Source: Takakia lepidozioides
Taxonomy: Eukaryota > Plantae > Bryophyta
Direction: 5' to 3'
Assembly: GCA_030704615.1 (NCBI GenBank)
Contig: CM060733.1
Coordinates: 47,244,001 to 47,308,000, forward strand
DNA: 64,000 nucleotides
Shown here: in pieces, positions 4,561 to 37,273 of the stretch
Layout: each line of letters opens with the position of its first letter
Numbering within the stretch: the first letter of the stretch is position 1
The notes under the pieces: model-generated
The model's input: only the letters and a program-made list of their open reading frames with translations
Told to the model about the DNA's origin: nothing
Database searches by the model: none
Position numbers and translations under genes: made by a program

Positions 4561-5625
4561 TTAGATACTCATCAGTTGGTGAATCTGGTTGCACTTTCCA
4601 TGGCTCTGGAAAAATCCCACTGAAGGGAGGATTGTTTGCCGCCTTTCTTGGTGTGTCGTCAACAAGAACAGTGTCCTCATAAGTCCATTCTGGCCAGTCT
4701 GCCTACATTCTAGACAAGTTCTTGAAATATAATGGCTTTGAACAGACCCCTTACGGCATGGGAGGACTGGATCCTCGTCACAGTGAAGGGCATCCCACTG
4801 GAAAACCAGCTTAGTGTGGGCTGCAAAAATATAGTCCACCATTGGGAAGAAGTTGCGAGCTTGGCAACAAGACCACACCGCCACCTCAAAGTGTTCAAAA
4901 CACTTTTGCAAAAAGTCATAACAGCGTGGTCTCAAAACTACCATCTTCTTGTCACACATCTTCCCCACAAAACCTTTGGGAAGGGATGCAGGCCCATTAG
5001 CAGAATGAAAAGATTCACATAACAGACCATTTAAGTCCAAAATTAGTAAATGCTTCCTCGCTGGTCCAGGAAGTAAACTGTCATTTGGCTTCAACATGTG
5101 AACAAGAGAAATTAAAGCAACATGTTTGTTTGTTTTGTCCCCGTCTGCATCTTCCTCCCCATTTGAACTCCCACATACCTGCATACCAGAATCCGGTGTG
5201 CCAGGCGGCTCTGTCACCATTGCCCCCTGGACTGCTACTGCCTTTGTACGTGGCAAGGGCTGAATTTCCACGTGTACCTCACAGCTCGCCTTCCCTGTAT
5301 CCTGCTGCTGCTCGGTCAAATTCAAAAGATCATCAGTGACAGGAAGACATAAGGGCTTAGAGTAAGCACCAGTTACCGTCTGAAATTGGGATTCCAAACA
5401 ATTTGATACTGTCACAGCAGACGCATCCATCGTAGATATCATTGGTCCTAGGCCTGGTAGATTAATCCCCAATCTGGCCACAATGGCTTTCTGGTACTCA
5501 ATCATGCTCTGCATCTGTAATTTTAAGTCTGCCATGTCACGTCCTTGTGATTCCACCAGTTTGTCCAAGCCATCCATCCTGCCAACTACTGTAGAATATA
5601 CGAGACTTCCCTCCTGCCAATCCAT
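4561..5625 (-). pseudogene. Coiled coil plus FCP1/NIF (HAD-fold) phosphatase-like domain; likely 3' part of the TnpA-like gene
   Basis: KHLLILDLNGLL...LRPRCYDFLQKCFEHFEVAVWS...LVFQWD..HC. After a frameshift near 4735 it continues KPLYFKNL...TVLVDDTPRKAANNPPFSGIFP, with one stop. Confidence 0.75.
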
Positions 5626-5980
5626 GAAAACTTGCCCAAGTATGAATCAAACAAAAAAAACCTAGCATGAACAACGACTGGAAAGAAAACCCAGGCCAAA
5701 AGCCTTGAAAAAAACCCTAGCAACCTATGATGCAGCAACCACTCTAGCAAACGTGGAAAACACACTTATCCGCCTGTCACTCCCAGTTGACAACCGTGAC
5801 ACTGAACCCTCTTGAATTTCATATAATATAGGAGGGCACCCTGATAGGGTTTCCTGCAAATTAATTAATCCATGCCACAAACAAACCCATGCCACAAGTC
5901 AGTAAGCAATGTGAGGGCTGACTATATACACATAGCAATTCAATGAGGAACAAAATACAGAGTCATGATGATGTCACTTA

Positions 5981-6498: not shown

Positions 6499-6969
6499 AA
6501 CACTATTTTAATTAATTCTGGACTTTTGGCTTAAATCTGGACTAAACTTAATATATATTTGTATTAAAATTAATTGAAATATTAATAATATCATGGTGTA
6601 ATGTGTGATTGAACTTTGTGAAATTTCAGGTGATGTCATACTTGTTTCAAAATGTGTCATATAAGAGGTCCATTTGACATTGAAGTGCTCAATGTGAAGT
6701 AGCAGTATTGAACAATTCATTGAACGTCCACTTGGAAGTCGAATAAAGTAAAATTCCATTGCATGATCATGATAAACAAATGGGTCGCATCGAACATGGG
6801 CCAAACTCGTACTCTACCATACTCGATACAACTTGCTAGTAATTTTATTGATTCAAGAATCTTCATATGAAGCACAATGTTCACATACCACGCCATTGGA
6901 ATGAATCATGTTTTGGATCTGACAAGACAATAAAATATTAGAATAGGATGAAACATTCGGAAGAGGTAC

Positions 6970-8640
6970 TAGGGTAGTACAATAAGGTTTGGGGTGTAAC
7001 TAGAGAGAAGTGTAATAAGGTTTGGGTTTACAGTAAGGGTAAGGGTTTAGGGTTTGGATTTAGGATACAAAAAGACAAACAAATATGATGGACTCACACT
7101 CGGTAGAATTAAGAAATGGTTGAGGAATTTGATATCCCTGTAATCATTCTATCATACCTTATCCAACAAAAGAAAATATTAAAAGAGCATGAAACATTGA
7201 GAAGCGGTAACATGGTAGTACAATAAGGTTTGGAGTGTAACTAGGATAGTACACTAAAGTTATTGGTTTATGGTAAGATTAATGGTTTAGGGGTGATGGT
7301 AAAGGTAGGGTTTTCGGTTTGGGTTTAAGAACACTATTGGACAAACAAATATGGAAGACTCACAGTCGCTAGAACTTGGTGTGTGTTAGTAGGATATTAA
7401 AATAAAAATAAAATGGAGAAACAAATATTATGGAAGAGTCATTGGGCCGGAGAAGTATTTAGATTGAGGATTCGTCCTTGGAACCTGGTATTAAGATACA
7501 TATGGTTATGGTATGGATACTTCATTCCCATTTGCAGGGGAAGGGTAAGGGTTTAGACGTAACAATGGCGTAGGGTTCTGTTTAGGGTTCCCGACGAGGG
7601 TTTAGGGTTTGGGTTGAAGGCAGAAATGGTGAGCATACATGCCGAAAGACTCGCACTTGCTACAACTTAGTGTTGTTAATAAGGTAGTACTAAGCAAAAT
7701 AAAAATGAAGAACCTAATATTATGGAAGTGTAGTCATTGCATCGGACAAGTATTTAAATGAAAGACTTGTCCTTGGAACTTGGTATTAAGATACATAGAA
7801 AGCAAAGTTCGATAAAAAAAATGTAAGTGCATGTCAATCCAAACCAAAGGCAAAACCTTGCGCAAGGTGAAGGGCGAAGAGATTTGAATAACCATAAATA
7901 GTTACGGTTATGGTATGGATACTTCATTCCCAGTTGCAGGGGAAGGGTAAGGGTTTAGACGTAATAATGGCGTAGGGTTTTCCTTAGGGTTTTCGACGAG
8001 GGTTTAGGGCTTGGGTTGAAGGCACAAATGGTGAGCATACATGCCGGAAGACTCGCACTTGCTACAACTTAGTGTGTGTTAGTATGGTACAAAATGGAAA
8101 TTTGGTTACATTGAAGAGATTTGGATAATTAAAATGGTTATGGTTATGGTATGGATAGTTGATTCCCATTTGCAAAGGGAAGGGAAAGGGTTCTAGGGTA
8201 TTGGGTTAAGAGTAAATGTTTAGGGTTTTCTAGTAAGGGTTTAGGGTTTTTGTTTAAGTTACAAAATAGACAAACACTTATAGAAAACTCCAGACTTCGC
8301 TAGAATTTAGTGTTGTTAGTAGGGTACTAGTAAGCAAAAAAAAATGAAGAACCTAATATTATGGACAAGTATTTAAATGAAAGACTCGTCGTTGGAACCT
8401 GGACCTAGTATTAAGATGTAACATAGAAAGCAAACTGTAACATGCCTAAATGCATGTCAATCCAAAACAAAGGAAAAAGCTAGCGCAAATGTGAAGGGAG
8501 AAGATATTTCAATAACCATAACGGTTATGGCTATGGCTATGGTTATGGTATGAATAGTTCATGGGCCATTTGCAGAGAAGGGTAAGGGTTAGGGGTAATG
8601 CTAACAAAAAAAACAAGGTACTATAAAAAAGGTATGTCAA
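6970..8640 (+). repeat. Degenerate tandem repeats of a few hundred bp, rich in TTTAGGG/TAGGGTTT motifs
   Basis: 7503-7680 is nearly identical to 7905-8080. Recurring GGGTTTAGGG, GGTTATGGTATGG and GAAGGGTAAGGGTT blocks. Confidence 0.75.
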
Positions 8641-8861
8641 TCCTAAATCCTAAATTGCCAAAAAAATAAAAATATACACTATGAGATTTGGAAAGAAAAT
8701 GGCGTTATATAACGACTTTTGGGAAGCGCCTGGATCTCATGGGAGAAAATGGATCTGAAGAAAACATCAGAGAGGATAAAAAGTCAGACCACCAAATAAA
8801 AACTATGAGAAATAAAAATTGCTTAAAATTTGAACAACGGAAAAGGACATGTGAAATTCCC

Positions 8862-9392
8862 TGTCGTGCGCATACATATCGCTACACAACTACATCGCTG
8901 TCCAAACCACACCACATATATATGCACAATAAAGTAGTCTGCCACAATGATAAGAAAGCTTGAAAGGACACACACTCTCAACACAAGAAATATGAAATCC
9001 CTCAACATCACTCGTTAAAACAGAAGTCGAGCCAGGGGCACCCCAAGCTGTGGGGACTCCACCCCACAACAACCTACACTCCCATCATGAGCACACTCAG
9101 TCCTAAACGATGCAGGAGCTCGATCGCGCAGGCTCAACTCGAGAGAGATGAGCCACGCGACTGCCGCTCTCGTGAAGATAAGGCCGTTCAGGTGTCAAAC
9201 TAAACTTGACACCTGATTTAACACTTGACCTTAATCCAAGTGTTAAATACAAATAACTAGCTTTATTCTAGTTGTTTTCACACTGTGCTTATTTAACTTG
9301 ACAGCTGTCGTGCGCATACATATCGCTACACAACTACATCGCTGTCCAAACCATACCACATATATATGCACAATAAAGTAGTCTGCCACAAT
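8862..9392 (-). repeat. 3' terminal block of element 1 (sense Z-gc-X-Y-Z)
   Basis: 87-bp direct repeat Z at 8862-8948 and 9306-9392 (1 mismatch). X 9138-9303 is directly repeated at 20237-20402. Y 8948-9153 is repeated inverted at 20031-20236. GC spacer at 9304-9305. Confidence 0.95.
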
Positions 9393-9402
9393 CGCCCCCC
9401 TA
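9393..9402 (-). promoter_or_regulatory. Polypurine-tract-like motif directly upstream of the internal Z copy
   Basis: Sense AGGGGGGCG then ATTGTGGC. Element 2 has AGGGGGGTG then ATTGTGGC at the same position (about 23246-23255). Confidence 0.65.
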
Positions 9403-9650
9403 GCTGGTGGGTAGGTCCCTCTACCTCCAGATAGGTACAAGATGTAATAGCCACAGCCGTACTAAGTCCTCTATCACTGCCCCTATTGCACTCAAACTCT
9501 ATAGACCAAGAGGCCGGGTACAAGAGTAGCCCCATCGTTAGTCGCCATCTTGCAATCTGTGAACTTGAGCCAGGACCTCGTGTGTTCAAGGTCTCCTAGT
9601 AGCTGGGCCTTGCGTTTCTTGTTAGCCTTCCATGGTTGTATCCACTCCCA

Positions 9651-9800
9651 CTATCCAATGCAATGTGGACATAACCAATCCCCATCCGGAACCATCTCAA
9701 GAGGTGGAGTCAAGCATCCCATATGCCAACCTCTAGAGCATCGATCACACACCAGCATGGTGGCTGCCCCTTTAGCAGACCCACACAACATGCACCTCAA
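9651..9800 (-). pseudogene. PHD finger at the integrase C-terminus (element 1)
   Basis: CMLC...MLVCDRCSRGWHMGCLTPPLEMVPDGDWLCPHC, a C4HC3 pattern. Confidence 0.92.
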
Positions 9801-9941
9801 ACCTGCAGATACCACTGCCAGGTTTGGGTCAATCCTGCCATCGACATTCGGAAGGTGACATGGCGCACAATTACGCACATGGTCCTTCCAAGTTATGCCA
9901 TCCCGACCCTCCAAGACCAAGACGCCTGAAGGCAAGACCTC

Positions 9942-10900
9942 TCAAACCCTCAAAATAACACGTCCTGCAGTCACATCCAGGGTCGTAGGAGCAGTCTGCT
10001 GCAGATAGACATAGTCACCAGGGTTGAATCTCCGAACCCCAGGACGATAGCCCCCACCACATATGGTAGCATACCTCAACGTATCACGGTGTTGTGCAAT
10101 GGCAAGGTTCTCGAAAGCCATGGGCATGACTCTCTTGAACAACTCTGCACGCTGCTCACATGCACGTGCCCACACGTTCGGATCGTCAAGGTTAAGAACT
10201 GTAGCAGCTTCTCTGCGAATGGATGTAGGCAAATCCGGCTCTCGGCCAAAGAGAAGAAAGTATGGTGAGAAGGAGGCAAGTGATGCTTGCTTGCTGAACC
10301 TGTAGCCCATGGCTAACCAGGGTAACTGAAGGTCCCAATCTCCTAGGTGTCCCTTCTGCAAGCCATACTTGCGCAAACCCCTCTTTACTGTCTGAACAAC
10401 TCTCTCTGCCAAGCCATCGGCCTCAGGATGATCCCGAGAAGTGGTGCGGTGGTCTATCAAGGCCTTGTCACACAAAACCTGAAACTCCCCCAAGAACTCT
10501 CTCCCTTGGTCCGTGAGTACCTCAGCTGGAGCACCGAATCGGCTAAGCACACAATCCAAGAATGCATATGCAGCTCCCTCACTAGCCTTATCAGGCAATG
10601 GAACCAATTCAATCCACTTGGAGAAGTGCTCCACCATCACCAACACGTACTTGTTGTGGCGCATGGTCAGTGGCAATGGCCCTGCGAAGTCAAGACTCCA
10701 CCTGTAGCCCAATCCCATGATCGGAAGAGGGTGCAATTGTGGAGTAAGGGCGTTGAATGAAGCACGCACCCTGTCATACACCATGCACCTAGCCACAAAT
10801 TGTTGCACCTATGTGTGCATACCACGCCACCAATACTGCCCCTGCAGTAGACTATGAGTGCGTCGCACCCCAAAATGCCCCAACTCCTCATGGGCATGCC
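9942..10900 (-). pseudogene. DDE integrase (element 1)
   Basis: HEELGHFG zinc-binding region; WSLDFAGP, LTDQGREF and ADGLAER catalytic triad; SPYFLLFGR. In-frame stops at 10809 and 9942. Confidence 0.95.
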
Positions 10901-11289
10901 GCACTAACCGTGCCCGCTGTGTTGGGTGAGGCACAATCCTCACTCGACCATCCTCCCACACTCGGAGCAGGTGTATCCCCTCCCACTTGAACCTCTTGGC
11001 TCGTTGTAGGATCCGATCCCTCTCCTTGGCAGTCACAGTGGCTGCAGTGTCTCCAGTGCGGAGGTAGTCCAACACAACTGAATCCTCATGTATATCTTTG
11101 GCGCCACCTTGCTCATTGCTGGCCTCAGGGTCCTCAGACACTTGATCTACTGTCATCCATGTTGCAGGTCCAACCTGGCCTTCCGCTGCCAAGATACACA
11201 GAAATGCAGATGCATGCCATTCGGGCACCATCTCCTCGTCCGTCTCACCATGCCACCGAGCTCCAGTGTCATCCTGCTGGCTCGTGCAT

Positions 11290-12446
11290 GGATTGCGACT
11301 CAACCCATCTGCATTGTGATTGACTAAACCCGGTCGATGCACCACCTGAAAGTCATACTCTTGAAGGATGAGTGCCCACCGTGCAAGCTTCCCCGTAAGC
11401 TTGTCTGACTCCATCAACCACTTGAGTGGTTGGTGATCCGTGACAAGGGTGAAGAGATTGTCGTATAAATAGCACCTGAAGTGTGCCACGGCCCACACTG
11501 CAGCTAAGCATTCTCTCTCATATGAGCTATACTTAGACTCTGCAGCATTGTTCGAGCGGCTAGCATAAGCCACTACGAACTCTCTTCCCTCATCATCCAC
11601 CTGTGTGAGCACCGCTCCAAGCCCCAGCATGCTCCAATCTGTATGCAGCTGAAAAGGACGCCCCCTGATAGGTCGTCTCAAGATGGGCGCCGAGGTCAAC
11701 CTCACCTTGAGCTCTTGAAAAGCTTGTTCTTGCTCACCTTCCCACTGCCACTCCTGGTCCACCTTGGTCAGCTTGGTTAGAGTCTTTGCAATGGCACTAA
11801 ATCCCTTAACAAACCGTCTGTAATAGTTTGCTAACCCCATGAAAGCTCGAACTCGGCTCACATCCGTGGGGCGTGGAACCTGTGCAATGGACTCTACCTT
11901 AGTCTGCTGTACCCCCAATCCTCCAGGATATATCATGTGACCCAGATACTCAATCTGGTTGTGGAAAAACTTGCACTTGCCCGGATGTAACTTCAATCCG
12001 TGCGTCCTCAAGCACTCAAATACCCCCTGAAGGTGTCTTTCATGCTCCTCCACCGTAGCACTAAAGATGATGATGTCATCTATGTAGCACCGAGCAAACT
12101 CCACCCCTGCTAGAATCCTGTCCATGACTCTTTGAAACTCAGCGGGAGCGTTTTTAAGCCCAAATGGTAAGAACTGCCATTGGTATAGGCAATCCTTCCC
12201 GTGCTCATTGATCCCCCAGAATGCCGTCTTTTGCTTAGAGACATCCTTCTTGGCTGGCATCACTGTGGCTGAAGCATACTCTCCACCAGAGAGCTCCACC
12301 AAACCTGCCTCCCAAAGATCCTGAGTTCTCATCTGAATCAAGGACCTCTCCATGTCACTGTATCTATAGGGTCTCCGAAAGATTGGCGTGTCAGTGGCCA
12401 ATTCAATGCGAATCTCTTGACCCTTCAGTGCTCCCAAGTCTTTCAA
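11290..12446 (-). pseudogene. Reverse transcriptase and RNase H (element 1), with an in-frame internal deletion
   Basis: LPFGLKNAP, YIDDII, LHTDWS, VVAYASR, TDHQPL, ADGLSR. Lacks about 59 codons present in element 2 between KKD and KQKT (near 12238). Confidence 0.95.
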
Positions 12447-12929
12447 ACTGAAGGCAAAGCAATTCCTATAAGCCCTCAGGAACCGCCGTATACGTTGTCT
12501 CTCTCCTCCGGTGACAATGGGTCCAATGTCAGGCTCCCAATTGTCCTCTGTAACTGCAACCTTAAGTCCAGTGGGCTTAGAGGTAGAGGACGCGTCCCGT
12601 GGTTGCTATGCTGCAACCTCTTGAGCAGTACTCCATTCCTGCTCAGTCAATGACAAGGCCTCATCCTGCCCCATCATCTCATCATTGAGAACCTCCTCCT
12701 CCCGAGAAGAATCCCCAACCTCATCCATCACAGCTGCCTTGGCTGCCAACTCCCTCTGAACCTCGAGTACCTCCCACGTGTGCCATGGATGTCTACACCC
12801 TGTGGTCCTCACCGGCTCGCCCCCACTCGCTGCCTGTACCGTCTCGGTAGGCAGAGAGACCGTCAAGGGAAGTGCACTCCGCACTCTACGTTGCTCAACC
12901 ATAGCCAAGCTGATAATCCAGGTCAAGCA

Positions 12930-13875
12930 ATTGAGATCCATTGCTTGCCCCAACACCTGACGACGTGATGCCTCAGAAAGAGAAGGCACCGCCGTGGTCC
13001 CAGTGGAAAACCCCATAGCCCGCTCTCGCTCGTCGGCATTAGGCTCCACTAACTGTTGCATCTGAGCATCCCACAGGAGGCCAGGTCCACCATCCCGAAA
13101 AGCATGGGATCCTGGGAAGCTGAGCAGTGTAGGTAATGCTGCTCATGGTTGACCCACCCTGTTGACCACTGCCAAAGGCGAATGGTCATCGTGTCTCACA
13201 CGTTGAGACTGCCTCCCTGTGTCCAAAATGCTGTCCACTATGAGGTGTGTTGGCCGCTGCACCCCATCAAATGCATGCTTGAGCAGTGCGGGTGGCATTA
13301 AGTTAATCCACCATAGCCGTGGACGATGAGCCCGTGATCCCACTGCAGCTGCATCCAGCAGCACTGCTGACCCAAGCCACGACCGGACTTGATGCACACT
13401 GGCCATCACCCTGGCCCGAGAATCGCCCATCAGTGGCACATTCTCCAAGATGTATGCTGGTGATACAGCTTGATGAAGCTGCAAGTGGCACAAAATCCGC
13501 ACCATCTCCCAAAACAGACATGTCCTCGAGTCTCGCAATTCATTGTCATGCCCGGCTGATGAATGCCCTTGGCAGGGCCAACCTGCCACTACCAGATCAA
13601 TGGAGCCAACCTGCTCCAAATCGGCGCCCCAGCAACAAAATGTCTGCTGGCAAGGCTTATTGGTATCCACGAACTGCAGACACTGGCAACAAAGCAGGGT
13701 ACTGCTGTACCAACTGAGCAACATGGCGCAGTGAGACGCGTCGTGCAGTCTCATCCCTCTCCACATACAGGTAATGCCTTACCCGCACAAGTAACGCCTT
13801 ACCCGCACACCTGCCTGTAGCACAGCAGCCAATCCGGTGCTGATCCCGCCAAACAAGTCCAGAAGGCAAATGCCT
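12930..13875 (-). pseudogene. C5-cytosine DNA methyltransferase domain within Pol (element 1)
   Basis: Motif I LDLFGGI, IV AGWPCQ, VI ENV, VIII HRPRLWW, IX ERERAMGF and X LGQAMD in non-permuted order. Disrupted by a 20-bp duplication (13769-13808), stops and a frameshift. Confidence 0.9.
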
Positions 13876-14289
13876 TCATCCGGATACTGCCACACAATAG
13901 GTGTGGTATCCAATGGTGACAACTGAGGTGGTCCTGGTGCAATACCCGCATTCTCCTCCTCTCCTGACGGTACAAAAGCCTCTACCCAGGCTTGTTGCAC
14001 CCGTCGATCAGCAACCTGCTGCAAATCCTTGCTTGTACCCCACAATGGAGTGTGAGCAACCATGGCAGGCAACTCCGCCATACCATGCATGTCATCCTGC
14101 TCTGCTGGAGGTGGCACATCTTCTGCATGGGCATTGCCTTCCAGCAACTCTCCAGGCCAACTAACTGCAGCTGTAAAGGCGGCTAGTGTTGGCATCTTGC
14201 CCCGTTGGGCAGCCGCAATACCCCCAATGAATGTCACAGGGAGCTGTGCACGACGACCATCCCCTGACTGCCATCCAGGCCTGTAGAAT

Positions 14290-14600
14290 GCTGACTCCTC
14301 CCAAAAGTCCAGGGTGAAGCCCATGGGGTATAACTCTGCCCCACCAACGAGGACATCGTAAGAGACCGCGTTTGTCACAATGGCCTTGGCTCGCATGACT
14401 GAGCCATCGATAGGATGATCCGGCTGCAGTCTAATGGCCAACTGATGCCGTGTCATGCCCCGAGCCTGCTCTGATCCTCCCAGAGATGTCTGTATCTGGA
14501 AAGGACAAGGCTCCATATCCGCCTCCATGAGGCCCAAACCTGCAATAGCAGCTCTGCCCAACATCAGTGGCTGAGCTCCCGAGTCCAACAAGACCCGCAA
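14290..14600 (-). pseudogene. Retropepsin-like aspartic protease (element 1)
   Basis: VLLDSGAQ...YDVLVGG. Confidence 0.8.
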
Positions 14601-15006
14601 TGGCCGGTACTTCTTGTCTGCCTTCCAGTAACTCCGCAGAAGATGAAGTGACCTCCCCACTCTCACAGAGTGTTGCTGCTAGTCTAAACACTGCAGCTGG
14701 TCTTACCCCCAGCGTCGCAATCATGGTTGCCAAGAACAGTGGGGCTTGACACACAGAGGCAAGGCTGCCAACAACAGTGGGCTACACGAGGTGGCTAATG
14801 GCAAGAAACCTCCGCCTCGGTAACAGTCGGGCGAGAACTAGGTGCCATGGATGGCGTTGACACTGTCTCCGCCAAGGTGAATGACTGAGGCAGCCTCGCC
14901 TGATGGCTTGCCTCCCCACGTTGTGGATCCAACTCCACCTCTGTACCTCGTGGTTCAGGAACTCGTGCTGCTCCTCGAATCACGGCTGCAGCAGACTCCA
15001 CCTGCT

Positions 15007-16608
15007 CTAGTGGTAGTGCTGCTCCGCACATGAATCCCATGCCTCCATATCTCCTCCCTCGGGAGCAGGAGGTGGACCATCCCGCCTGGGAGCCGGTACC
15101 GCCTGAGCTATAGCCATTGCAGCGAGCCTCTGCTCTAGCTGCTGAAGCCGGTTGGCCATGCCTTGGTCAACACCCTGACCTCCGCGTCCGTGGCCATGTT
15201 GAGCTTGCCCTTGGCCTGCACCTCGTGCCCGACCACCTTGTCCTCTCTGGGCTGGTCCACCTCGCCCCCGGCCACCATTGTTCCCTTGGAACTGGCCTGG
15301 GCGCAACTCAGGATGCAAGTCATAACACTGGGCATCTCCATGCCCATACTTGCCACAATGCCCACACCGCAACTGTGTAGGCTGTGTTTGTGCCGGCCTT
15401 TTGCCACTCTCTGGGCAATCTCTCTTGACATGGGGTCCTCCACATGTCCAACATATCACCCCTGGTTGCTGTTGGCCTGCAAAAGATGCCACGGGCCTTT
15501 GCACCTGAGGTCCCCTGTAAGCTCCATGGAACTTGGGTTGGGAAACCTTGCCCCCCTGACCACGCTGTTGGGCAGTCCCTTGTGCCTGTGGGCTGGCAGC
15601 TGCTCCTCGTGCAGGCATGTCCTTGCCAAACCCAATGGTAATAACTCGCTCCTCCACCATGTTGAGCTCAATCCGCTCAGCCAGCAGAAACACATCTGCT
15701 AATGTGGGTTGGGCTGCTTGTAACAGGGTTGCATCCCGCACCCTTCTCCTGAGCTCCTTGTCCAAAATTCCATACCAGAACTGGATTGCCTGAGCTTCAG
15801 TAACCCCTTGGGTCACACTTATCAAGCGCCTCATACGAGTGTAGGCCTCTCGCAAGCTCTCACTGGGTTTGCGCTGGAAGTCTTACAAACTTCGCAGCTT
15901 CTCTGTCCGTACACCTTGGTAGTTCCTCCGCAACTCCCGGAAGAACTCCACCACCGGGTTGAATCTAGGCACATGTGTTGTAGTCGTGGCAGGAGGAGTA
16001 GTAGCACCTTTTGAACTGGTACCACCTGCAGAAGTACCGGCACTACTTGTTCCACTACTAGTGCTGGTAGTGGGAGATATTGGTACTGATGCAGCTACTG
16101 GTCGCATCGTGCCTCGAGTAATGGAGACGTAGTCAGGTGACCAATACATCCTCCACTCCTCAATCTCTGCTTCATGTCCTCGCCTGAACTCGTGGTAATC
16201 GTCCATAGGTGGGCCTTCCAAACGCTGGAACAGTCCCTTCCACGCCATGAATGGGATGAATAGCTGTGGATTGCGCATCTGCTGCAAATCACACCAGCTG
16301 TCGAACTCCTGGATAAAGTCATCCAACTCGATTGTGCCCACAGCTCCAGAGTACCTACGAGGCCCCTTGGTAGCTCCATACATCTCCTCCATGTCGTCCC
16401 ACAACAATGGCGAATGAAACTGCACACCTGTTGATGAAGCCTCCGAGTCTGTGTCTGACTCTACAGTAGTTGAGGGTGGCGGTGAAGGTGGTCTGAACCG
16501 AATACCTCGTCTTGTGAACCCACTCTCACTGTTACTGCTTGTAGCTGTACTCCCCTCAAAACCCTTGGGTAACTCCGTAATGACACTCACAATGTGCACC
16601 TCCTCCAC
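15007..16608 (-). pseudogene. Gag (element 1) with two zinc knuckles
   Basis: Q...ES.REAYTR major-homology-like segment; CWTCGGPHVKRDC and CGHCGKYGHGDAQC. Frameshift near 15885. Confidence 0.85.
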
Positions 16609-16697
16609 GTGACACTATAAGGCTCTAGTACTAATCTAATAGTGACACGGGTGGGCACCTGTTGCAGTCTAAGGGTCATATCCCAATGGCTCAGGGC

Positions 16698-16940
16698 ACC
16701 TGCACCTGCATCCACCGCAAGAACTCCTATGGTTGGCTGGTCATCAACCCAGCCTCACCATAGAAGAAACACTGGTGGTCTTGCTGGTCATCACTCCAGC
16801 CTCACCACCGACAGCATACTCTAGGATTGACCGGTGATCAAATCCGGCCTAATCCCTATGAAAGCAAGCGCCCACACAAAACCAACATGGCGCACAGTCA
16901 AGCATGCAGGTGTTGGGGGGATCCAAACACAAGAAATCAA
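16698..16940 (-). promoter_or_regulatory. Conserved structured leader RNA upstream of gag (element 1)
   Basis: Three related stem-loops (16728-16762, 16774-16809, 16822-16858) enclosed by CACCTGCAT 16703-16711 and ATGCAGGTG 16904-16912. Near-identical to 30727-30970. Confidence 0.7.
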
Positions 16941-17126
16941 AACATCAACACCCCCACACCAAAATCCAGCTGCAATGCTGATCCTGCAGAATATCCTAGC
17001 CCAAAACCCCGGACTGACTGGCCTCCACCAAGAGAGGCTTTGGCAACTACGAGTACAAGGTAATGAAAATAGTACAAAGATGGAGGGGAAGAATAGAAGC
17101 CCGCCCAAGCAAGATCTAATCCTGAT

Positions 17127-17876
17127 CTATGCTATCAACTTCCAGACTTCTCTCAAAGTGCCTCGCTCTGCTTGATGGTAAGGTGTAGGAGGTATATCTA
17201 TGTCCAGAAACCTGCCACTAACCTTGTCCCAAGCTACAGTAGCTCGCTCTAACCAACCCTCCTCCTCTTTCTGCCAGGTAGAGACAAAGCAACACTCTGC
17301 TATCTCCCGCTCACTGAACACTTAAGAAAGCAAAGGTAGGGTCTGATAGTTTCTCAACTCGAAAGCTTTGAGACGGTTGCGGGTGTCCTCATTGCGAATG
17401 ACTGCATCTCCTTCAAATAGAACAAACTTGTCCTCGCTAATGAACCCCCGCTTGTGGTTGCCTTGTGCAGAGCGTGTCCGGCTGCAACGCTGTCTGATTG
17501 CACAAACTTGTGTAGCTCCTGCTCCTCTGCTCCAGTACACCACAGCCTTGTGGCTGAACACCTTGGTCCCCGGGGCTGTCTTTGGCTGTGTTCCAAGCCT
17601 AGCTTTCACCCACTTTGGTATTTCACTTACAGCTGCAGAACTGCTGGCTCCAACAGAGTTCTGACTGTCCAAAGCGATATTGAGGCCCTCAACGCCAACT
17701 ACAGCAGTCTGTTGTCTACTGCCAATGCCTGACTCCCAGTATGCAATCAACTCGTCCAACTGTTCTCCACTCAAATCAGTCTGAGTTCCTTGGGAAACAT
17801 AAATCTTGTCCCCTTGTGTGCACAGACTAAGAGAAGAGACCTGCCCTTCAATTACGTCCTCATTTCCCCCAGCCAT
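17127..17876 (-). CDS. Extra ORF of unknown function upstream of gag (184 aa, plus 64 aa in frame after one stop)
   Basis: ATG-initiated ORF 17322-17876 abuts in-frame ORF 17127-17321. Same strand as gag-pol. No recognised domain. Confidence 0.4.
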
Positions 17877-18297
17877 ACAAGGAGGACATCCACAGATTTG
17901 TCTCTCAAATAGACCAGAATTGGTTCTAGAAACAGAATTGTGGATCTTTCACGACACACTCACACTCTAAAAATTCCATAGATTTTTAGCAGAGTCCCAA
18001 AAACAGAAACTAGATAGGTAGATTTCCCCTTTCTGCAGCTATCCCCTCAAAAACTGAGTCAAACGGAGCTCATTTGACAAAGATATGACCAACCAGGCTC
18101 TTTAAACATTTAAATTAGATCAAAAAGGCCCTTTTTTTTTTTTTAACACCAAAATGTTTTTGCCATTACAACCTGTTCCCAGGTTATCTATGGGTTCCCA
18201 AGGCCGTTCCCTTTCAGGCTTCTCCAGGCACCAAGAGCTCATTAACTCCAAAACTCGACCTCAGTTGGGTGGGGTATCACACCCTGGAGGCGATTTG

Positions 18298-18465
18298 CTT
18301 TTCTCTGCGCGTGGGCCTACCTCCTCGAGCTTTCAGGACGGCAAGGCAGCAGCCATGTTTACAGCACGCAGGAAGATTCAGAAGGAGAAGGGGCTCGAGC
18401 CTGATGAGTTTGAAGAGGCTGTAGCCCAGGCCTTATTCGACCTAGAGACTACAAACCAGGAATTG
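18298..18465 (+). pseudogene. RPS7: Captured 40S ribosomal protein S7 5' fragment (5'UTR and first 37 codons)
   Basis: ATG at 18355: [37 protein letters not shown], preceded by a pyrimidine-starting leader. Confidence 0.9.
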
Positions 18466-20030
18466 GGGCGATTTCAAGAGCAGATGCACTGCGCAACACC
18501 TTCATGGCTTATGGACAGGCGGCCTGCTGTAATGTGGCCGTCTTTGCATAGAATCCAAGGCCAAGACCAGCTTGAAGTTCCATCAACTTGGTCTAATTCG
18601 CATCTCTCGTCAGCGATTATTGTTGGCTTACAATGGTTTCCGCCTTCCTGTTACTGCTCGTGTTTCTTCAGTGTGCAATTTACAGGTCAGGGATCAGCGA
18701 CAACAGGCACCAGATTGCCCCGTCACCACCCCCACAAGGCACAGACAACTTCACTGCCAAGAAAAAGAAAGTGAACCATGCTCAACATGCAGACCCAAGG
18801 CCTGGGTCCATCTGCATCAGCTCCAGTATAAGAGAGACAATCATACAGTTATCAAGTCTCTACAGGGATTTGCGATTGCCTCAGTAAAGTGGAACTCAAT
18901 CTGCAGCCTCCTTCCGCCGCCTCTCCATCAACCCTTGGAGGCTCTCGTCCGCTGGCCTCATCCGTCAGCATTGCTTCTCCTGCTACGAGTCTTCGCATTT
19001 CCTCCCCTGCTCGCCTGTGCAGAAGTAAGTACCCTTGACGCCGAAATGACAGTAGAGGCAAGTGATCAGTTGGGAGTGTTCAAATGATGAGACAAGTAGA
19101 GCTGGAGCTCCCTTGACCTGTATCGCCACAATCTTGGACTCGGGCAGTGTGCTGAGTTGAAAGTTGGGTTGTGAACCACCATTCGACTTTCCACCAGTTT
19201 CCACCTCAAAATGGTGGAACCAAGGTGCAAGGCAGCAACAGCTACTTGGCTTTGTACAAACCTGAAGCACTTAAAAAAAAAAACGACTTTGCACCTTGCA
19301 CTCCCCGAAATCAACAATGCCCCCAACAACCCTTTTTGTCAGAAAGTTGGTTGCTTATGCAGATAATCGACCAGGTGAAAGCAGCTTTCCCAGCCACAGT
19401 CACAAGTAGCATGAAGATTTGTGAGACTCCTGGTTTTGCAGTGTTGATGATATGCCAGCAATGGGCTCCCCGTTCTCCACCGCTTTGCTGCTAGGCTTTC
19501 TCTCTCGGGCCTGCACCTTCAACCAGCTCGCTGCGCCGTGCTCTACCTGCCGGCGCTACATTTACTGGAGGGAGCGGATTTACAGCTCCTCCTTCAACTG
19601 GCTCCGCTACACCAGCTCCACCTGCTCTTCCGCTGCCTTTCCTGACTGCTTCTGGTCTGTCCTGGTTTGAATTTAACACTGGTCTGTGCACATCGAACTA
19701 AGGCGAGCAGCCCGGCCATCTCCAGGCACGGAAGTTCTACCCATCTGCTCGATCACAGGCTCCTCCTTTAAGTCTCGCACTTGGTCATTTTCCCAACGGC
19801 CAATCGCTGCTACTCCACGATGTCTCCTCACCGACCAAAACGAAGGCTGCTTCCATGCAGTGTAGCTCCATCATGCCCGGCGGCCTCATGCCAGAACCAA
19901 TGCTGATCGAAACCTGCATATTTTGTTTTTTTTTTTTTTTTTTTTAAGCTTCTAAAACTAAGCACTACTTACACACAGGTAATCGTACAAGTGCTAATTC
20001 TCAACTCCTACCTTGCACTCACAGGTAAGA

Positions 20031-20402
20031 GCTCATCTCTCTCGAGTTGAGCCTGCGCGACCGAGCTCCTGCATCGTTTAGGACTGAGTGTGCTCATGAT
20101 GGGAGTGTAGGTTGTTGTGGGGTGGAGTCGCCACAGCTTGGGGTGCCCCTGGCTCGACTTCTGTTTTAACGAGTGATGTTGAGGGATTTCATATTTCTTG
20201 TGTTGAGAGTGTGTGTCCTTTCAAGCCTTCTTATCACTCGAGAGAGATGAGCCACGCGACTGCCGCTCTCGTGAAGATAAGGTCGTTCAGGTGTCAAACT
20301 AAACTTGACACCTGATTTAATACTTGACCTAAATCCAAGTGTTAAATACAAATAACTAGCTTTATTCTAGTTGTTTTCACACTGTGCTTATTTAACTTGA
20401 CA
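20031..20402 (-). repeat. 5' terminal block of element 1 (sense X then inverted Y), with a 16-bp inverted repeat
   Basis: GCTCATCTCTCTCGAG at 20031-20046 and CTCGAGAGAGATGAGC at 20237-20252 flank the inverted segment. About 3 mismatches per repeat against the 3' copies. Confidence 0.95.
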
Positions 20403-20930
20403 TCCCTCTTAAACCAGGGCCAAAGATAAGAAGTATGAAAATGAAATGAAATGAAAATTTGGTGCAGAAAAGTCGTAGAGCTTAGAGGGAAAATGGAGGA
20501 AAACCGCAGAGAAAAAACTTCAGGACTGGCAAATTGAAAAGTATGTCAACAACGATTGAGTAAGGCTCCTCCTAGTGGGAGACTTCAGTGGAAGAATTGG
20601 TTATGCGAAAAGCAAGTCCAATGTTTCAGAGAATGATTGGAAATAGGCTATTTTCTTCCATTGTTAAAAACCTCTTTGACCGAATTTGAAGACTCCAGTG
20701 GTCGTGCCCGCCCATTTTGTTCTTGTGATCTATATGTTATGTAGGCGAAACTCCCCCACAGGGTATTTTTTGTTGACCAGGACGTACAGCAGGCCAGAAT
20801 CCAGCAAACCAGAAACAAAGGACGAGAACGTTCACTGGACATTCGAGGTTCAATGCGACATAAGAATATTGCAGAAAGAATCCCCCAACGCAAACAAGAA
20901 AGGCCATATAGAGAAGAAAAAATTTATTTC

Positions 20931-22704
20931 TTAAATCGAAGTACTGGAGTTGACCTCAACAATATGTCTTTGGTCTGGAACTCGCTCGCACGACTCGCTT
21001 TCTGACTGACGATTAGCCTCCTCCAAATTAACGCACGCCTTCACTGCTTCGGCGGTAGTAATTCTCTTAGTGCTATTCATTGTCGTATTTTTCCGTGGAG
21101 GCATTGTCCACACAACATTGTTCACGTGGATCCATTGAGGAGGATCTATCAAGTTATACTCCCAAAGTTTTGACCAGCAGTCCCTGTACCTTTCCAAGTC
21201 TGTTGGGTTACCACCTTTTCTCGGTCTCCACCACTCCACCTTCACCTTCTTAAAATTAGGATCCTCCCTTTCGCGGATCACGTCAGATATTGCCACCCCC
21301 ATCCAGACCGGGCACGTACTTGGGTCATGAGAGCGAACGAGCACATAGAACCCTTTCTCAATATCCTTGAACGGATTCAGGGATATTCTTGGTCGCTCGC
21401 ACCTCGGGCCACAATAAGGTTTTAGGATTTCACCATCTTCTTCCACATCTAGCACTATATGTAGATGGATTCCATCTCTGTGATGATTCTTGGACCAATT
21501 TATTTTTGGCCAGAATCCCTCAAAAAGCTAAATACACTCGGGAGCTTCTGGAATTGGCTTATCCAGCTCAGCGAGAATGTTTCCCCAGTACTGGTTGTAT
21601 TGTTCCATTCAACCTCTGTAATGATCGTCAAGCATCATTCCTTTCGTCCAAAAATCCCTGTATTTTTTTATTCCATTCTTAATGAATGACTATTTTTCGG
21701 AAGAGTCGTCCCCGACTCCCCAGATAGGTCTCATTGGAACGGCGTTTGGGTCTCTTTCAGGGAGCTTGGGAGTCCCGTCAGGATTGGACTTCCACATCTT
21801 CACGCTGTTGTTTGTTGGAAGCCAATCCGAATCAGAAGCGGACTTCTTGTACTTCATGACGGGCCAACCCTCGGCATCCTTAAAAAAGCGGAAGACGTAC
21901 ATCTCCGAAATCCCGACCAACGCCTCCTTTCCATCCAGAATACAACCCTTGACAAAATTCTTGAAGTCGGGAACCTCCTGAATAATCTGTGGAATGAACT
22001 GCAGATCTTGCGAGGTCATGAATGACCTCATCAAATCCGAAAGAATGTAGGTGCTTCGTTCCTTCAACTTCTTCGAAAGGTAGCTGAAGAACCCGTCGAT
22101 GTCCTCATGGGTGTGTCCGACCATTAAGAACCCTAGTTGGATTTCTTCAAAAACATCTTTGGCGGTTAGGAGGGATAGAAAAGCAAGCATCCATCTGTTC
22201 TTATTGTCCTTTGCGGAGTTGTCCATTTGCAAGTACAGTCTTCTCGGAAGTGGACGAGCACCACGTTTGTCTTCCGGCCTGCAGGATTTCAGAGCATCCA
22301 AACATTTTGATTTACCTCTTAAAAGTGATTCGAAAAACTCGTTTTGAAGTCGGTAATCGAAAATGTGCCTGGACTCACGACAGGTTGGCTTCTCCAGCTG
22401 GCGCAGGCAACGGGCCAAAGAACCAATTGTAAAGTTTGAATTTCCCTTCCAGAACTCAAGAGAATATTGTCCGTAAGCTCCATCACCGTGTCCGTGCGTG
22501 ACCATTCCCGTTAGTGAAATTGGAAGCTGACCCAATCCAGAAATCATCTTGTTTGGAGTCTGTAGCCTTGGAACAGCTGTTTTCCTATGATCCAATTTGT
22601 CGTGAATAATACAGAGAAACTCCTCCGGAATCATAACAGACTCATTCCTCCAGCTATGGTACAGTCTTCTGCACGACTCTTGGTGCCTCAAATGTTTATC
22701 AAGA
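20931..22704 (-). pseudogene. DUF7869-type (Sola-like DDD/E) transposase, 5' part cut off by retroelement 2
   Basis: IIHDKLDH...LYLQMDNSAKDNKN...FLMVGHTHEDIDGFF. Continues through in-frame stops into the 20931-21455 ORF (PVWMGVA...VKVEWWRP). Confidence 0.75.
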
Positions 22705-23245
22705 TGTCATGCACCTAAGCATCGTGCCACAACATACATCGCTATCCACCATACATTCTAAGCACACAATCCTAGAAAGCTATGCCACAATGATAATGAA
22801 AGTGAACACAAGGGAAACATTCCACTCATGAATCCACTCAATCACATAAACTAAGTCAAGCCAAGGGCACCCTTGCTAAGGGAATCCACCCTACAAAGCC
22901 CTCAACACACTCCCTCTCAATACCTAGAGCTATGGAGGTGAGAGAGGCTCATGGAGGTTCAACTACAAGAAGATGAGCCCTCCTCAACGCTCACAAGGGG
23001 AAAATCCATCCCCATGTCCCAAGTGAGGTTTGACACCTCACTTGGCATGTGAGACCAAATGAAGTCCCAACACACAAAATACAAATATAAATATCCAAAT
23101 TGTCCTAGTTAACTAGAAGTAGGTAATTCTAGTTAACCATGACTAAAACCATGACAGCTGTCGTGCACCTAAGCATCGTGCCACAACATACATCGTTGTC
23201 TACCATACATTCTAAGCACACAATCGTAGAAATCTATGCCACAAT
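22705..23245 (-). repeat. 3' terminal block of element 2 (sense Z-gc-X-Y-Z)
   Basis: 87-bp direct repeats at 22705-22791 and 23159-23245. Junction ATGACA-GC-TGTCG at 23151-23163. Confidence 0.92.
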
Positions 23246-26200
23246 CACCCCCCTAGCCGGTGATTAGGTCCCTCTAACACCGGATAGCTGACAAGTATTC
23301 ATCTCAATAAGATCATCACTTGGTCTTCAATCACACATGTCCCAATTTTTTAAAGTATATGGATCAAGAGGCCGGGTGCAACGAGAGCCCCATCATTAAT
23401 CGCCTACTTGCAATCCATGATCTTCAATTGAGTATCCATGGCGTTGAGCTCCTACAAGCTAGACCTTGGATCACTTGTCAACTCCACCATTGTCATGCCC
23501 ACTGCCTATGTCCAAGGCATCGTGGACACAACCATTCTCCACTAGAAACCTCCTCAAGTGGCGGTGTCAAGCATCCCATGTCCCACCCCCTTGAGCATTT
23601 GTCACACACCAGCATGGTTACGGCACCACCAGCATGCCCACATAGCATGCAACGTAACCCTGCAGGTACCACTGCAAGGTTGGGATCTATCCTCCCATCC
23701 ACATGTGGAAGGTGACATGGCGCACAATTGCGCACATGGTCCTTCCATACCGTGCCATCTCGACCCTCCAGAATCAACACTCCTGAAGGCAACACCTCCC
23801 GGACCCTTAGAATCACACGCCCTGCTGTGACATCCAAAGTCGTAGGCGCTGTCTGCTGCAGATACACATAGTCCCCAGGGTGGAGACGCCAAACACCTGG
23901 CCGATATCCCCCTCCACGTACAGTGGCATACCTTAATGTGTCTCGGTGTTGGGCAATAGCAAGGTTCTCAAAAGCCATAGGCATGACTCTCTTGAACAAT
24001 TCTGCCCGCTGGGCACATGCTTGTGTCCACACATCCGGATCATCAAGGTTGAGGACTACTACAGTCTCCCTACGAATAGATGCAGGCAAATCTGGCTCTC
24101 GGCCAAAGAGAAGGAAATAAGGTGAGAATGAGGCAAGTGAAGCTTGTTTGCTGAACCTATAGCCCATAGCTAGCCAAGGCAGCTGAAGGTCCCAATCTCC
24201 TAGGTGTCCCTTCTGCAAACCGTACTTGCGCAAACCTCTCTTGACTGTCTGAACAATTCTCTCCGCCAAGCCATCAGCCTCGGGATGATCCCGAGAAGTA
24301 GTGCGGTGATCTATCAAGGCTTGCTCACACAAAGCCTGAAACTCCCCCAAGAATTCTCTCTCCCTGGTCCGTGAGTATCTCGGCTGGAGCACCAAAATGG
24401 CTAAGCACTCGATCTAAGAATGCATACGCAGCCCCCTCACTTGCATTGTCAGGCAATGCCACCAGTTCAATCCATTTGGAAAAGTGTTCCACCATCACCA
24501 GCACATACTTGTTATGGCGAATCGTCAGTGGCAATGGGCCTGCGAAGTCAAGACTCCAACGATAGCCCAAACCCATAATGGGTAAATGATGCAATTGTGG
24601 AGTAGGGGCGTTGAAAGAAGCCCGCACTCTATCACACACCATGCACCTTGCCACTAACTGTTGCACATCCGTGTGCATGCCTCGCCACCAATACTGCCCT
24701 TGCAGCAAACTATGAGTGCGTCGCACCCCAAAATGTCTCAACTCCTCATGGGCATGGCGTACCAATCGCGCTCGTTGTGTTGGATGAGGCACAATCCTCA
24801 CTCGTCCATCCTCCCATACCCGGAGTAGGTGAGTCCCTTCCCACTTGAACCTCATGGCTCGTTGTAGGATCCGATCTCTTTCCTTAGCAGTCACACTGGC
24901 TGCTGTCTCTCATGTACGAAGGTAGGCCAACACTGCTGCATCTTCATGCACATCCTTAGCACCACCAAGCTCATCACTGATCTCCGGATCGTCATGCACA
25001 CCATCTACTTGACCAATGTTATGGGATGGACCAGCTTGAGCTCCCATTGCTAGGATGCACAAAAAGGCAGATGCATGCCATCCTGGCACCATCTCCTCAT
25101 CTGTCTCACCATGCCACCGAGCTCCAGTATCATCATGCTCACTCGTGCATGGATTACGACTCAATCCATATGCATCCCGATTGACAATACCGGCTTGATG
25201 CACCACCTGGAAGTCATACTCTTGAAGCATAAGTGTCCACCGTGCAAGCTTCCCTGTAAACTTGTCTGACTCCATCAACCACTTCAATGGTTGGTGATCC
25301 GTGACAAGGGTGAAGAGATTGCCATAGAGGTAGCATCTGAAATGTGTCACTGCCCATACCGCAGCTAGACACTTCCCTTCATATGAACTATACTTCGTCT
25401 CGGCATCATTGTTCGAGCGGCTAGCATATGCCACTACGAACTCTCTTCCCTCATCATCCACTTGTGTGAGCACTGCTCCAATCCCCAGCATACTCCAATC
25501 TGTATGTAGCTGGAAAGGCCGCCCCCGAATAGGCCGCCTCAGAATAGGTGCAGAAGTCAATCGAGCCTTGAGTTCCTCAAAGGTTTCCTCCTGTTCCTCC
25601 TCCCACTACCACTCCTGACCCACCTTGGTCAACTTGGTAAGAGCCTTTGCAATGCTGCTAAATCCCTTGACAAACCGTCGATAGTAGTTTGTCAACCCCA
25701 TGAAAGCACGCACTCTGCTAACATCTATGGGGCGTGGAATGCGTGCAATGGCCTCCACCTTCGTCTTTTGAACACCCAATCCTCCAGGGTATATCATGTG
25801 GCCCAGATACTCAATCTGGTTGTGGAAGAACTTGCACTTCTCAGGGTGCAATTTCAACCCGTGCGCTCTCAAGCGCTCAAACACCACCTGAAGGTGTCTC
25901 TCATGCTCCTCAACCGTAGCACTAAAGACGATGATGTCATCAATGTAGCACCGGGCGAAGTCTAGCCCCACGAGAATCCTATCCATGACCCTGTGAAACT
26001 CTGCAGGAGCATTCTTCAGCCCAAACGGTAAGAACCGCCATTGGTACAAGCAATCCTTCTCATGTTGGTCAATCCCCCAGAATGTCGTCTTTTGCTTATC
26101 AGCCTCTTTGATTGGCAACTGGTGGTAACCAGATCGCAAGTCCAATGTGCTAAACACCTTTGCATGCCCAATGGCATCAAAGATCTCCTCTGGAGTTGGC

Positions 26201-27039
26201 ATGGCATATCTATTGGACTTAGTCTGACGGTTCACAGGACAATAGTCCCCACACATCCTTCTTTCTGTCCAATTGCCATAGATATCCTTCTTAGCTGGCA
26301 TCACCGTTGCCGAGGCATACTCCCCGCCTGACAACTCCACCAATCCAGCTTCAAACAACTCCATAGTCCGTGACTGGATCAATGACCTCTTCATGTCACT
26401 ATACCGGTAGGGCCTTCGAAAGATTGGCGTGTCACTTGCCAAATTAATACGAATCTCCTGACCCTTCAAACTCCCCAAATCCTTCAAACAGAAGGCAAAG
26501 CAATTTCTATAAGCCCTTAGAAATCGCTGGATCCTCCGTCTCTCTCCTCCAGTGATTGTAGGTCCAACATCTGGTTCCCAATTGTCCTCAGTGACTGCAA
26601 CCTTGGGTACACCGGGCTTGGAGGTAGGAGACGAATCCTTTGGTTGCTAGATAGCAACCTCTTGGGCCTTGTCCACCCAATCTGACTGTGGCGTAGCCTC
26701 CACTTGCTCCACCATAGCCACCTTGAGAACATCCTTTGAGCAAGAAATATTCTCAACCTCTTCAAAAACCTTGGCTACCTTAGCCTCCAACTGATCCTCG
26801 GTCCATGGCTCTCCCCACTCCTCATACTGTTGCTTGAGAGATCCAATGACTCTCTCTTTGCGCATCTCATCCCACATCTGCCATGGGTGTTTGCAACCCA
26901 CGATCTTGTGCTCGCCCCCACTCAGTGCCTCAACCGTCCCGGTTGGCAGGGAGGATGCACCATCCAATGGGAGTGTAGAAGTAGCCATCAATGCTTGCAA
27001 TCTCCGTTGCTCAGCCATGCACAAGCCAATTATCCATGT

Positions 27040-37141: not shown

Positions 37142-37273
37142 TATGGCTTGCTCTCAGGTCAAGTGACGAAAGGTTATGCTGGTTGTCCAGCTTGTGGACC
37201 CGGGGTGACTTCACAGCAGTTACACACATGTGGGAAAACTGTTTTCCTGGGCCACCGAAGATTTTTGGCCCGC

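Follow-up and report, generated by a model that had tools for sequence, protein, structure and literature searches.

The 64-kb stretch of the Takakia lepidozioides genome analysed here (the window) contains two decayed Ty3/Gypsy retrotransposon copies, E1 and E2, both on the minus strand. Six-frame translation combined with Pfam searches gave the same domain order in both, namely Gag, protease (PR), cytosine-5 DNA methyltransferase (DNMT), reverse transcriptase (RT), RNase H (RH), integrase (IN) and PHD finger, with matches in this set to DNA_methylase (both copies), RVT_1, RT_RNaseH, Integrase_H2C2, rve and PHD. The two copies are 71-81% identical at the DNA level and represent diverged families. 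Their extents and coding regions are as follows:

8862-20402, minus strand: E1, complete end to end, with TGTC...GACA termini, laid out as A1-leader-Gag-PR-DNMT-(stop)-RT-RH-IN-PHD-PPT-B1-A2-B2 (A and B, repeats; PPT, polypurine tract)
15100-16392, minus strand: E1 Gag, broken, with two zinc-knuckle-like motifs (tblastn with Marchantia P0106; translation)
14200-14609, minus strand: E1 aspartic protease region, with LLDSG (translation; no Pfam match)
12903-13871, minus strand: E1 DNMT3-type C5 methyltransferase domain (Pfam, motifs, translation)
11300-12599, minus strand: E1 reverse transcriptase and RNase H (Pfam), with an RT deletion at about 12238
9942-11100, minus strand: E1 integrase, zinc-binding region and DDE core (Pfam)
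9654-9797, minus strand: E1 C-terminal PHD finger, closest to the PHDs of CHD4, PHF12, KDM5A/B and ATXR5
22705 to about 31078, minus strand: E2, with its 5′ end missing or displaced
27004-27965, minus strand: E2 DNMT3-type domain (Pfam), with a frame change near 27345
23517-23660, minus strand: E2 PHD finger, after the integrase (PF00628, E 5e-08)

The DSG within LLDSG is what we take to be the aspartic protease motif of E1. Translation confirmed that both copies are decayed, as the original prediction had stated: the DNMT of E1 carries frame changes near 13790 and 13625 and a stop at 13143-13145, in addition to the RT deletion, and that of E2 is interrupted by its frame change. Neither an A1 copy nor a primer site belonging to E2 was found in the window. 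The Gag-PR-RT-RH-IN order and the DDE integrase place both elements in Ty3/Gypsy. Such integrases usually have 35 residues between the second catalytic Asp and the Glu; that of E1 (9942-10808, minus strand) has 34, a spacing also found in the distant relatives P0126 and P0128. Two complete direct LTRs, one per end, are not present, the repeats being split instead. The elements are Gypsy by their proteins and not canonical LTR elements by their structure.

In public contigs of the host, positions 8700-18200 are covered a few hundred times deeper than 18228-19815 (summed depth, which is not a copy number), and because of this contrast we regard E1 as a member of an abundant family with a private insertion in its leader. 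The low-copy insertion in the 5′ leader, at 18228-19950, contains a fragment of ribosomal protein S7e (Pfam E 1e-4) and an A-run near 19930. The high-copy part of the leader holds an open frame of 208 codons (17322-17948, minus strand), for which no match was found in Pfam, the Atlas or the relative loci. Elsewhere, the window contains a transposase-like DUF7869 gene (20931-22706, minus strand) that is cut by the right end of E2 and whose 5′ part was sought upstream of E2 and not found, CACTA-type remnants with Transposase_21 and DUF4216 (35798-39207, plus strand), an intronless 396-codon gene of the plant F-box/KIB1-type beta-propeller kind (47068-48258, minus strand), a NIF-phosphatase-like frame (4561-5646, minus strand; Pfam E 1e-7) and an array of diverged 200-400 bp repeats (6900-8600).

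The methyltransferase motifs of E1 read, on the minus strand, DLFGG (13845-13859), GWPCQG (13566-13583), LENV (13437-13448), RPRLWW (13308-13325), ERAMGF (13008-13025) and GQAMD (12936-12950). E2 has its blocks in the same order and on the same strand, at 27939-27953, 27678-27695, 27549-27560, 27420-27437, 27124-27141 and 27052-27066. The six blocks predicted for both copies were therefore where they had been placed, but E2 reads GWSCQ and ENI, not WPCQ and ENV. Pfam DNA_methylase scored above its cut-off in both E1 (E 1.3e-12) and E2 (E 9.4e-08), so that the domain is not a chance resemblance. Motifs I, IV, VI, VIII, IX and X run in linear order, in line with the predicted non-permuted, DNMT3-like type, and the circularly permuted order of plant DRM was not observed. 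When solved structures were searched with the sequence of the intact Calypogeia homologue P0104, DNMT3A/B came first (E 8e-11), followed by DRM and then HhaI. An AlphaFold model of a second intact homologue, P0002 (alignment of 46 sequences, pLDDT 90.8), likewise matched DNMT3A/B best (Foldseek E 9e-19; VIA Z 29.0, rmsd 2.5 over 273 residues), with HhaI at Z 24.1. Judged by the sequence and the predicted fold of these intact homologues, the domain is a non-permuted DNMT3-type C5 methyltransferase.

Residues were counted in E1, E2 and 80 metagenome loci (the best 80 of 160 confirmed); the loci come from few assemblies and mostly from one family, so the counts are not independent. The residues of PC and ENV, on which the original prediction had staked itself, are mostly kept in the family: among the aligned copies, the catalytic Cys is present in 70/73, Pro in 65/73, Glu in 76/79 and Asn in 69/78. 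The two motif-VIII arginines are kept in 39/77 and 51/77 of the dead copies, and since the changes are mostly to His, Cys, Gln or stop, they match the expectation from CpG decay. Many distant relatives have EC instead of PC at motif IV and ENT or ENA at motif VI, which counts against the active enzyme that we favour below. Alternatively, the domain might be kept because it binds DNA or flips bases, transferring few or no methyl groups, and might serve to protect or package cDNA. We consider this distinctly unlikely. It would fit the EC-type algal relatives and the absence of extra CpG loss from the elements: searched for as a sign of self-methylation, CpG and CWG depletion showed no contrast to the rest of the window (CpG observed/expected 0.47 in E1 and E2 versus 0.45-0.54 over most of the window). 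It would also fit the related Klebsormidium enzyme, for which no activity was seen in yeast, whereas the related SymbioDIRS-Dnmt3 domains methylate CG de novo (both in the available text of PMC5890265). Moreover, the land-plant clade retains the SAM-binding FGG, PC, ENV and RxR together, and the catalytic Cys is kept even in the EC-type relatives.

Between E1 and E2, dN/dS of the DNMT was 0.096 over 250 codons (Nei-Gojobori), not near 1, and similar to that of RT (0.088), IN (0.068) and PR (0.109). Deeper pairs of loci gave 0.18 and close dead copies 0.55-0.71. Because the ratio is low both between families and among deeper pairs, we conclude that the DNMT was under purifying selection while the families were active. 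Ratios of E1 and E2 against the loci were mostly undefined, with synonymous sites saturated (pS 0.74-0.79 versus pN 0.21-0.24).

Word searches returned 101 near-length and 26 longer homologues, and the named ones come from Marchantia polymorpha, M. paleacea, Calypogeia fissa and three Sphagnum species (42-73% identity). In DNMT trees, which held element-borne domains only, E1 and E2 group with the Marchantia, Calypogeia and Sphagnum proteins; this position and the plant F-box gene of the window are in keeping with a non-seed land-plant host. When 1.84 billion representatives were searched with a profile, there were 575 matches at E up to 1e-30, 150 of them listed; the profile also held non-DNMT columns, and 575 is not a count of DNMTs. 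In most of the 25 long matches that were scanned, the region matching the DNMT profile is preceded by RH and followed by IN, usually with a PHD finger. The Closterium relative has the order PR-DNMT-RT. The relatives from Scenedesmus, Haematococcus, Chromochloris and Cymbomonas have the DNMT after RT-RH, and in the chlorophyte relatives it lies between RH and IN. P0129-P0275 and P0313-P0375 form a large algal clade with the order RT-RH-DNMT-IN-PHD, in which many members have EC at motif IV and some carry a G-patch. Fern, lycophyte, seed-plant and Klebsormidium names did not occur among the named matches, which is weak evidence given that most matches are unnamed; a Symbiodinium gene (P0377) was a weak profile match (E 2.9e-6), and the viral contigs searched contained no related sequence.

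The two domain orders are split in a DNMT tree of 49 chosen proteins plus E1 and E2 (SH-aLRT 100) and also in the RT tree, where 12 and 109 rows are separated by one change (99). The simplest reading of the two trees is one old lineage with a single move of the DNMT domain; the 242-row FastTree, rooted on one long branch, gives no direction for this move. These data bear directly on whether the DNMT might be a neutral passenger, that is, a recently captured host gene fragment. Both window copies are broken and close dead copies show the high ratios given above, as such a passenger would, but the ratio is about 0.10 between families and 0.18 for deeper pairs, the domain spans liverworts, mosses, Closterium and chlorophytes, and the DNMT and RT trees split alike. 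In addition, host streptophyte DNMT3s carry DUF3444 (Yaari et al. 2019, PMC6453930, available text), which did not appear in our Pfam results. We count this explanation as refuted, its chance of being correct being close to nil.

An element of this general design has been described before. KnitGypsy-Dnmt3 of the alga Klebsormidium nitens is a Gypsy element with a Dnmt3-related domain and DIRS-like repeats (de Mendoza et al. 2018, PMC5890265; here and for the other papers cited, our comparison refers to those parts of the text that were available). Likened by published description and not by sequence, it shares with E1 and E2 the Gypsy-type domains, a non-permuted Dnmt3-related domain with its catalytic residues, DIRS-like split repeats and purifying selection, the Ka/Ks below 0.2 reported there corresponding to the 0.096 between E1 and E2. 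The differences lie in expression, accessory features and host. The KnitGypsy-Dnmt3 methyltransferase is in the ORF of the RT, whereas here it is in the same frame as RT and RH with a conserved stop between; the available text does not mention a PHD finger, self-priming site, target duplications or junction palindrome, whereas here all but the self-priming site, which is putative, are present; and KnitGypsy-Dnmt3 belongs to an algal host, with a capture reported as specific to the K. nitens lineage, in contrast to a land-plant host with relatives in bryophytes, Closterium and chlorophytes. Its authors placed the acquisition in the K. nitens lineage and called the lack of methylation in yeast inconclusive (PMC5890265). 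A capture limited to Klebsormidium is argued against by our relatives, which span chlorophytes and streptophytes.

Other element-borne enzymes differ more. SymbioDIRS-Dnmt3 of Symbiodinium has the same repeat layout and an element-borne C5 methyltransferase shown to methylate CG, but SymbioDIRS uses a tyrosine recombinase and SymbioLINE-Dnmt is a non-LTR element, unlike the DDE integrase and PHD finger found here (PMC5890265). No tyrosine recombinase, the hallmark by which DIRS/Ngaro elements would be recognized, was found among the ORFs scanned, and an rve integrase and target duplications are present. The EpiLTRs of Cymbomonas and Euglena are likewise retrotransposons with C5 methyltransferases, but they carry a DNMT4-sister domain with DAM and a chromodomain, instead of a DNMT3-type domain with a PHD finger (bioRxiv 10.64898/2026.05.21.726589). 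The host DNMT3s of non-flowering streptophytes have the same DNMT3-type catalytic domain and linear motif order, but a C-terminal DUF3444, and DRM is permuted (PMC6453930); the domain described here is neither and sits in an intron-free retroelement ORF. Tcn1/Tf1-type chromoviruses and the Phygy/Selgy non-chromoviruses share the Ty3/Gypsy order and a self-priming-type complement (Neumann et al. 2019, PMC6317226; Novikova et al. 2010, PMC2864245), whereas our elements have a PHD finger and no chromodomain, split repeats and a DNMT; the NCGN target preference of Phygy type (PMC6317226) was fitted by 0/7 duplications.

Later papers cite KnitGypsy-Dnmt3 as 'streptophyte' and, in their available text, name no land plants (bioRxiv 10.64898/2026.05.21.726589; PMC12344493). 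In agreement with the suggestion that such elements are uncharacterised in embryophytes, our search of the openly available literature found no paper on them, and six Marchantia gene identifiers were named in no paper that it covered. The core design is thus already published for one alga; what is added is its extension to land plants and chlorophytes, the likely placement of the DNMT at the Gag level and the structure of the ends.

The placement at the Gag level is suggested by a stop codon at the same aligned place in both copies:

12600-12608, minus strand: E1 in-frame TAG followed by CAA-CCA (UAG-CAR-YYA type), TAG at 12606-12608; putative readthrough site (alignment)
26641-26649, minus strand: E2 in-frame TAG-CAA-CCA, TAG at 26647-26649 (alignment)

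The DNMT had been predicted to be embedded in Pol. Its position between protease and RT holds, but the conserved in-frame stop cuts it off from the RT. Among the 51 loci that reach this site, 45 have an in-frame stop (34 TAG, 11 TAA) followed by CAA-CC or CAA-CT; the other six comprise one double stop, one without a stop, two that are frame-damaged and two of a distant subfamily. In four runs of host DNA, no variant at ≥5% was seen at 12599-12610, while 12598, 12611 and 12612 vary. Mere decay as the origin of the stop is ruled out by this absence of variants and by the conservation across loci. Furthermore, the Marchantia and Calypogeia proteins P0104, P0106, P0109, P0110 and P0122 terminate 79-82 residues past the DNMT, and a single frame runs from Gag through the DNMT in loci L008, L026, L028 and L064. 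RT lies downstream of the DNMT in 56/80 loci, with in-frame probes in agreement; the other 24 have no RT match.

The sequence defined as the type I readthrough motif is UAG-CAR-YYA (PMC3542737); among LTR elements, leaky gag-pol stops do occur, although rarely (PMC3441728). Since the stop separates DNMT from RT, the DNMT ends the Gag-PR ORF and Pol likely needs readthrough, which suggests that the DNMT is made at the Gag level and RT-RH-IN-PHD by readthrough. Two observations count against this: most relatives have CAA-CCC, a partial match to CAR-YYA, and in P0205, P0282, P0370 and the Closterium protein P0283 there is no stop and the DNMT runs into the RT.

With a Gag-level DNMT in the particle, its likeliest substrate would be the new cDNA or a circle derived from it. 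The same position before a leaky stop would, on the other hand, make the DNMT far more abundant than RT and IN and leave it untethered to them, and it could then be active mainly in trans or at the insertion site, methylating existing copies or flanking chromatin and so limiting its own family. Host moss DNMT3s are indeed a de novo system (PMC6453930), and slowing of transposition is among the options named by de Mendoza et al. (PMC5890265). Nevertheless, we think such a role unlikely: fusion to Gag and protease favours packaging, the location of the DNMT inside Pol between RH and IN in most algal relatives points to the cDNA, and an effect shared with rival elements would presumably be harder to keep under selection.

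The ends of the elements consist of the following features:

20403-20406, minus strand: 5′ copy of the 4-bp target-site duplication GGGA (E1)
8858-8861, minus strand: 3′ copy of the same duplication GGGA (E1)
20048-20402, minus strand: repeat A1 of E1, 98% identical to A2
20236-20252, minus strand: A1 site complementary to the stretch after A1; putative transcript start and self-primer
20031-20047, minus strand: 17-nt perfect complement of 20236-20252, directly after A1; putative self-priming primer-binding site
9393-9401, minus strand: polypurine tract (AGGGGGG), directly before B1
9306-9392, minus strand: repeat B1 of E1, one difference from B2 in 87 nt
9300-9309, no strand: palindrome GACAGCTGTC at the B1/A2 joint, composed of the right end of the element, GC and the left end
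8949-9303, minus strand: repeat A2 of E1
8862-8948, minus strand: repeat B2 of E1, right end of the element
22705-23245, minus strand: E2 3′ repeats (B1 23159-23245, A2 22792-23156, B2 22705-22791)
23153-23162: E2 palindrome at the B1/A2 joint, the same GACAGCTGTC as in E1

The repeats are thus split in the DIRS-like order A-coding-B-A-B, which is complete in E1, L019, L060 and L062/L064. B-A-B was found at the 3′ end in nine distinct insertions, and B upstream of A1 in 0/17 distinct 5′ ends. TG...CA termini with a target-site duplication of the 4-6 bp typical of Ty3/Gypsy are present: in six of the seven insertions with both ends on one sequence, 4-bp duplications flank the TGTC/GACA termini, L019 being unclear. 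Nested or tandem insertion was rejected as the origin of B-A-B, given that the target duplications enclose the whole unit, and Troyka was rejected as a precedent for such odd ends, its LTRs being ordinary and paired in the available description (PMC12440569). A shorter A-coding-B form occurs in six further insertions, and one more (L033) is damaged. At one site, L059 has B-A-B where L042 has B; the short form can therefore be a later product or an effect of collapse during assembly.

The palindrome has two matches in the window, with 0.05 expected. B1 and B2 are 93-99% alike within each copy (93% in E2), but B differs strongly between E1 and E2, from which it follows that one of the two is remade from the other. 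The polypurine tract lies directly 5′ of B1 in 17/18 loci and in both window copies. Self-priming has been described for the same arrangement, in which a repeat-derived complement immediately follows the 5′ repeat (PMC2864245, PMC6317226). Flanked by the arms of a 17-bp inverted repeat, the 3′ part of A1 (20048-20235) lies in inverted orientation, and the counterpart in A2 of the site at 20236-20252 is 9137-9153; the inversion is explained by the 17-bp complement of the A site lying directly after A1. L078 has a 12-bp stem after A1 that is homologous to the 17 bp of E1 in other letters. Stems of at least 10 nt were found in only 6/16 relatives (control median 5-6, control maximum 7-10), and the z-scores of whole-region folding were weak (−0.41 and −1.86), which counts against self-priming.

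As the polypurine tract and the putative priming site bound a B-GC-A unit, ordinary reverse transcription should yield B-A at both ends. The A2/B2 joint fuses exactly the two primer-defined ends, and each integrated end corresponds to one half of the internal palindrome. That the integrated ends match this palindrome while the priming signals bound B-A suggests that a circle is the form that integrates. In a single case, L060, the A2/B2 joint holds about 20 extra bases (10837-10857), the last two of which are also the final two of the polypurine tract; this resembles an imprecise, end-joined circle junction.

The layout could alternatively reflect DIRS/Ngaro-like copying, in which the RNA runs to B2, the B1/A2 joint templates the joining of the ends and the integrase opens the new joint, with the DNMT acting as in the reading we prefer. 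The layout is the same as that of DIRS-type elements (PMC5890265), and this route would explain why A-coding-B-A-B is the sole form: although there are two palindromes in a two-repeat circle, the permuted form A-B-A-coding-B was seen in 0/17, an absence that our model leaves unexplained. We rate it as somewhat improbable, since the polypurine tract and self-priming site bound a normal B-A repeat whose ends are fused at A2/B2, and the extra bases of L060 are as end-joining would give.

Taken together, we favour the reading, with a probability of roughly 0.6, that E1 and E2 are dead copies of Ty3/Gypsy elements whose Gag-PR-DNMT was made at the Gag level and packaged, and methylated the element's own cDNA before a probably circular integration. 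Transcription would start inside repeat A. Most ribosomes would halt at UAG-CAA-CC, giving Gag-PR-DNMT, and a minority would read through to RT-RH-IN-PHD. Self-primed reverse transcription would then produce a linear DNA with B-GC-A at both ends, and the joining of these ends would give a two-repeat circle and create the A/B joint. The DDE integrase would nick the GACA-GC-TGTC palindrome on both strands, after CA in each case, leaving the observed product with retroviral-type processed ends, and the opened circle would be inserted as A-coding-B-A-B. The abundant DNMT would methylate the new DNA in cis, such that the copy arrives pre-marked. The PHDs of CHD4, KDM5 and ATXR5 recognise H3K4 in its unmethylated state, and that of the elements may direct insertion towards chromatin without H3K4 methylation. 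In the circle junctions of IS3- and IS30-family elements and in the cleavage of retroviral two-LTR circle junctions, a DDE enzyme opens abutted ends with a short spacer; here, by analogy, a retroelement would carry the abutted-end site within its own repeat, and its opening would be the normal route. The openly available literature searched contained no description of the leaky stop or of the circle route. More tentatively, and with clearly less confidence than we attach to the reading of the two copies, the findings may extend to an ancient green-lineage Gypsy clade, reaching from chlorophytes via Closterium to liverworts and mosses, that has carried DNMT3 and PHD since before land plants; in land plants, it would have capsid-level loading through a leaky stop and would integrate pre-methylated circles in place of its linear cDNA.

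Hosts silence retrotransposons mainly by cytosine methylation. What an element would gain from bringing this enzyme along has been an open question since 2018, because the algae with known cases are difficult to study experimentally. In Marchantia polymorpha, close relatives whose catalytic motifs are intact are annotated as hypothetical genes (e.g. Mp_4g09160 and Mp_8g17980), and because this liverwort is a genetic model, the question becomes testable. The conserved stop alters the dose of enzyme to be expected. Owing to the split ends, this high-copy family would escape LTR finders that require two complete LTRs. The same ends point to a circular integration route, which we did not find in the literature searched; if true, the opening of a circle at a built-in site, akin to that of bacterial IS circles, would represent a novel way for LTR-type retroelements to replicate.
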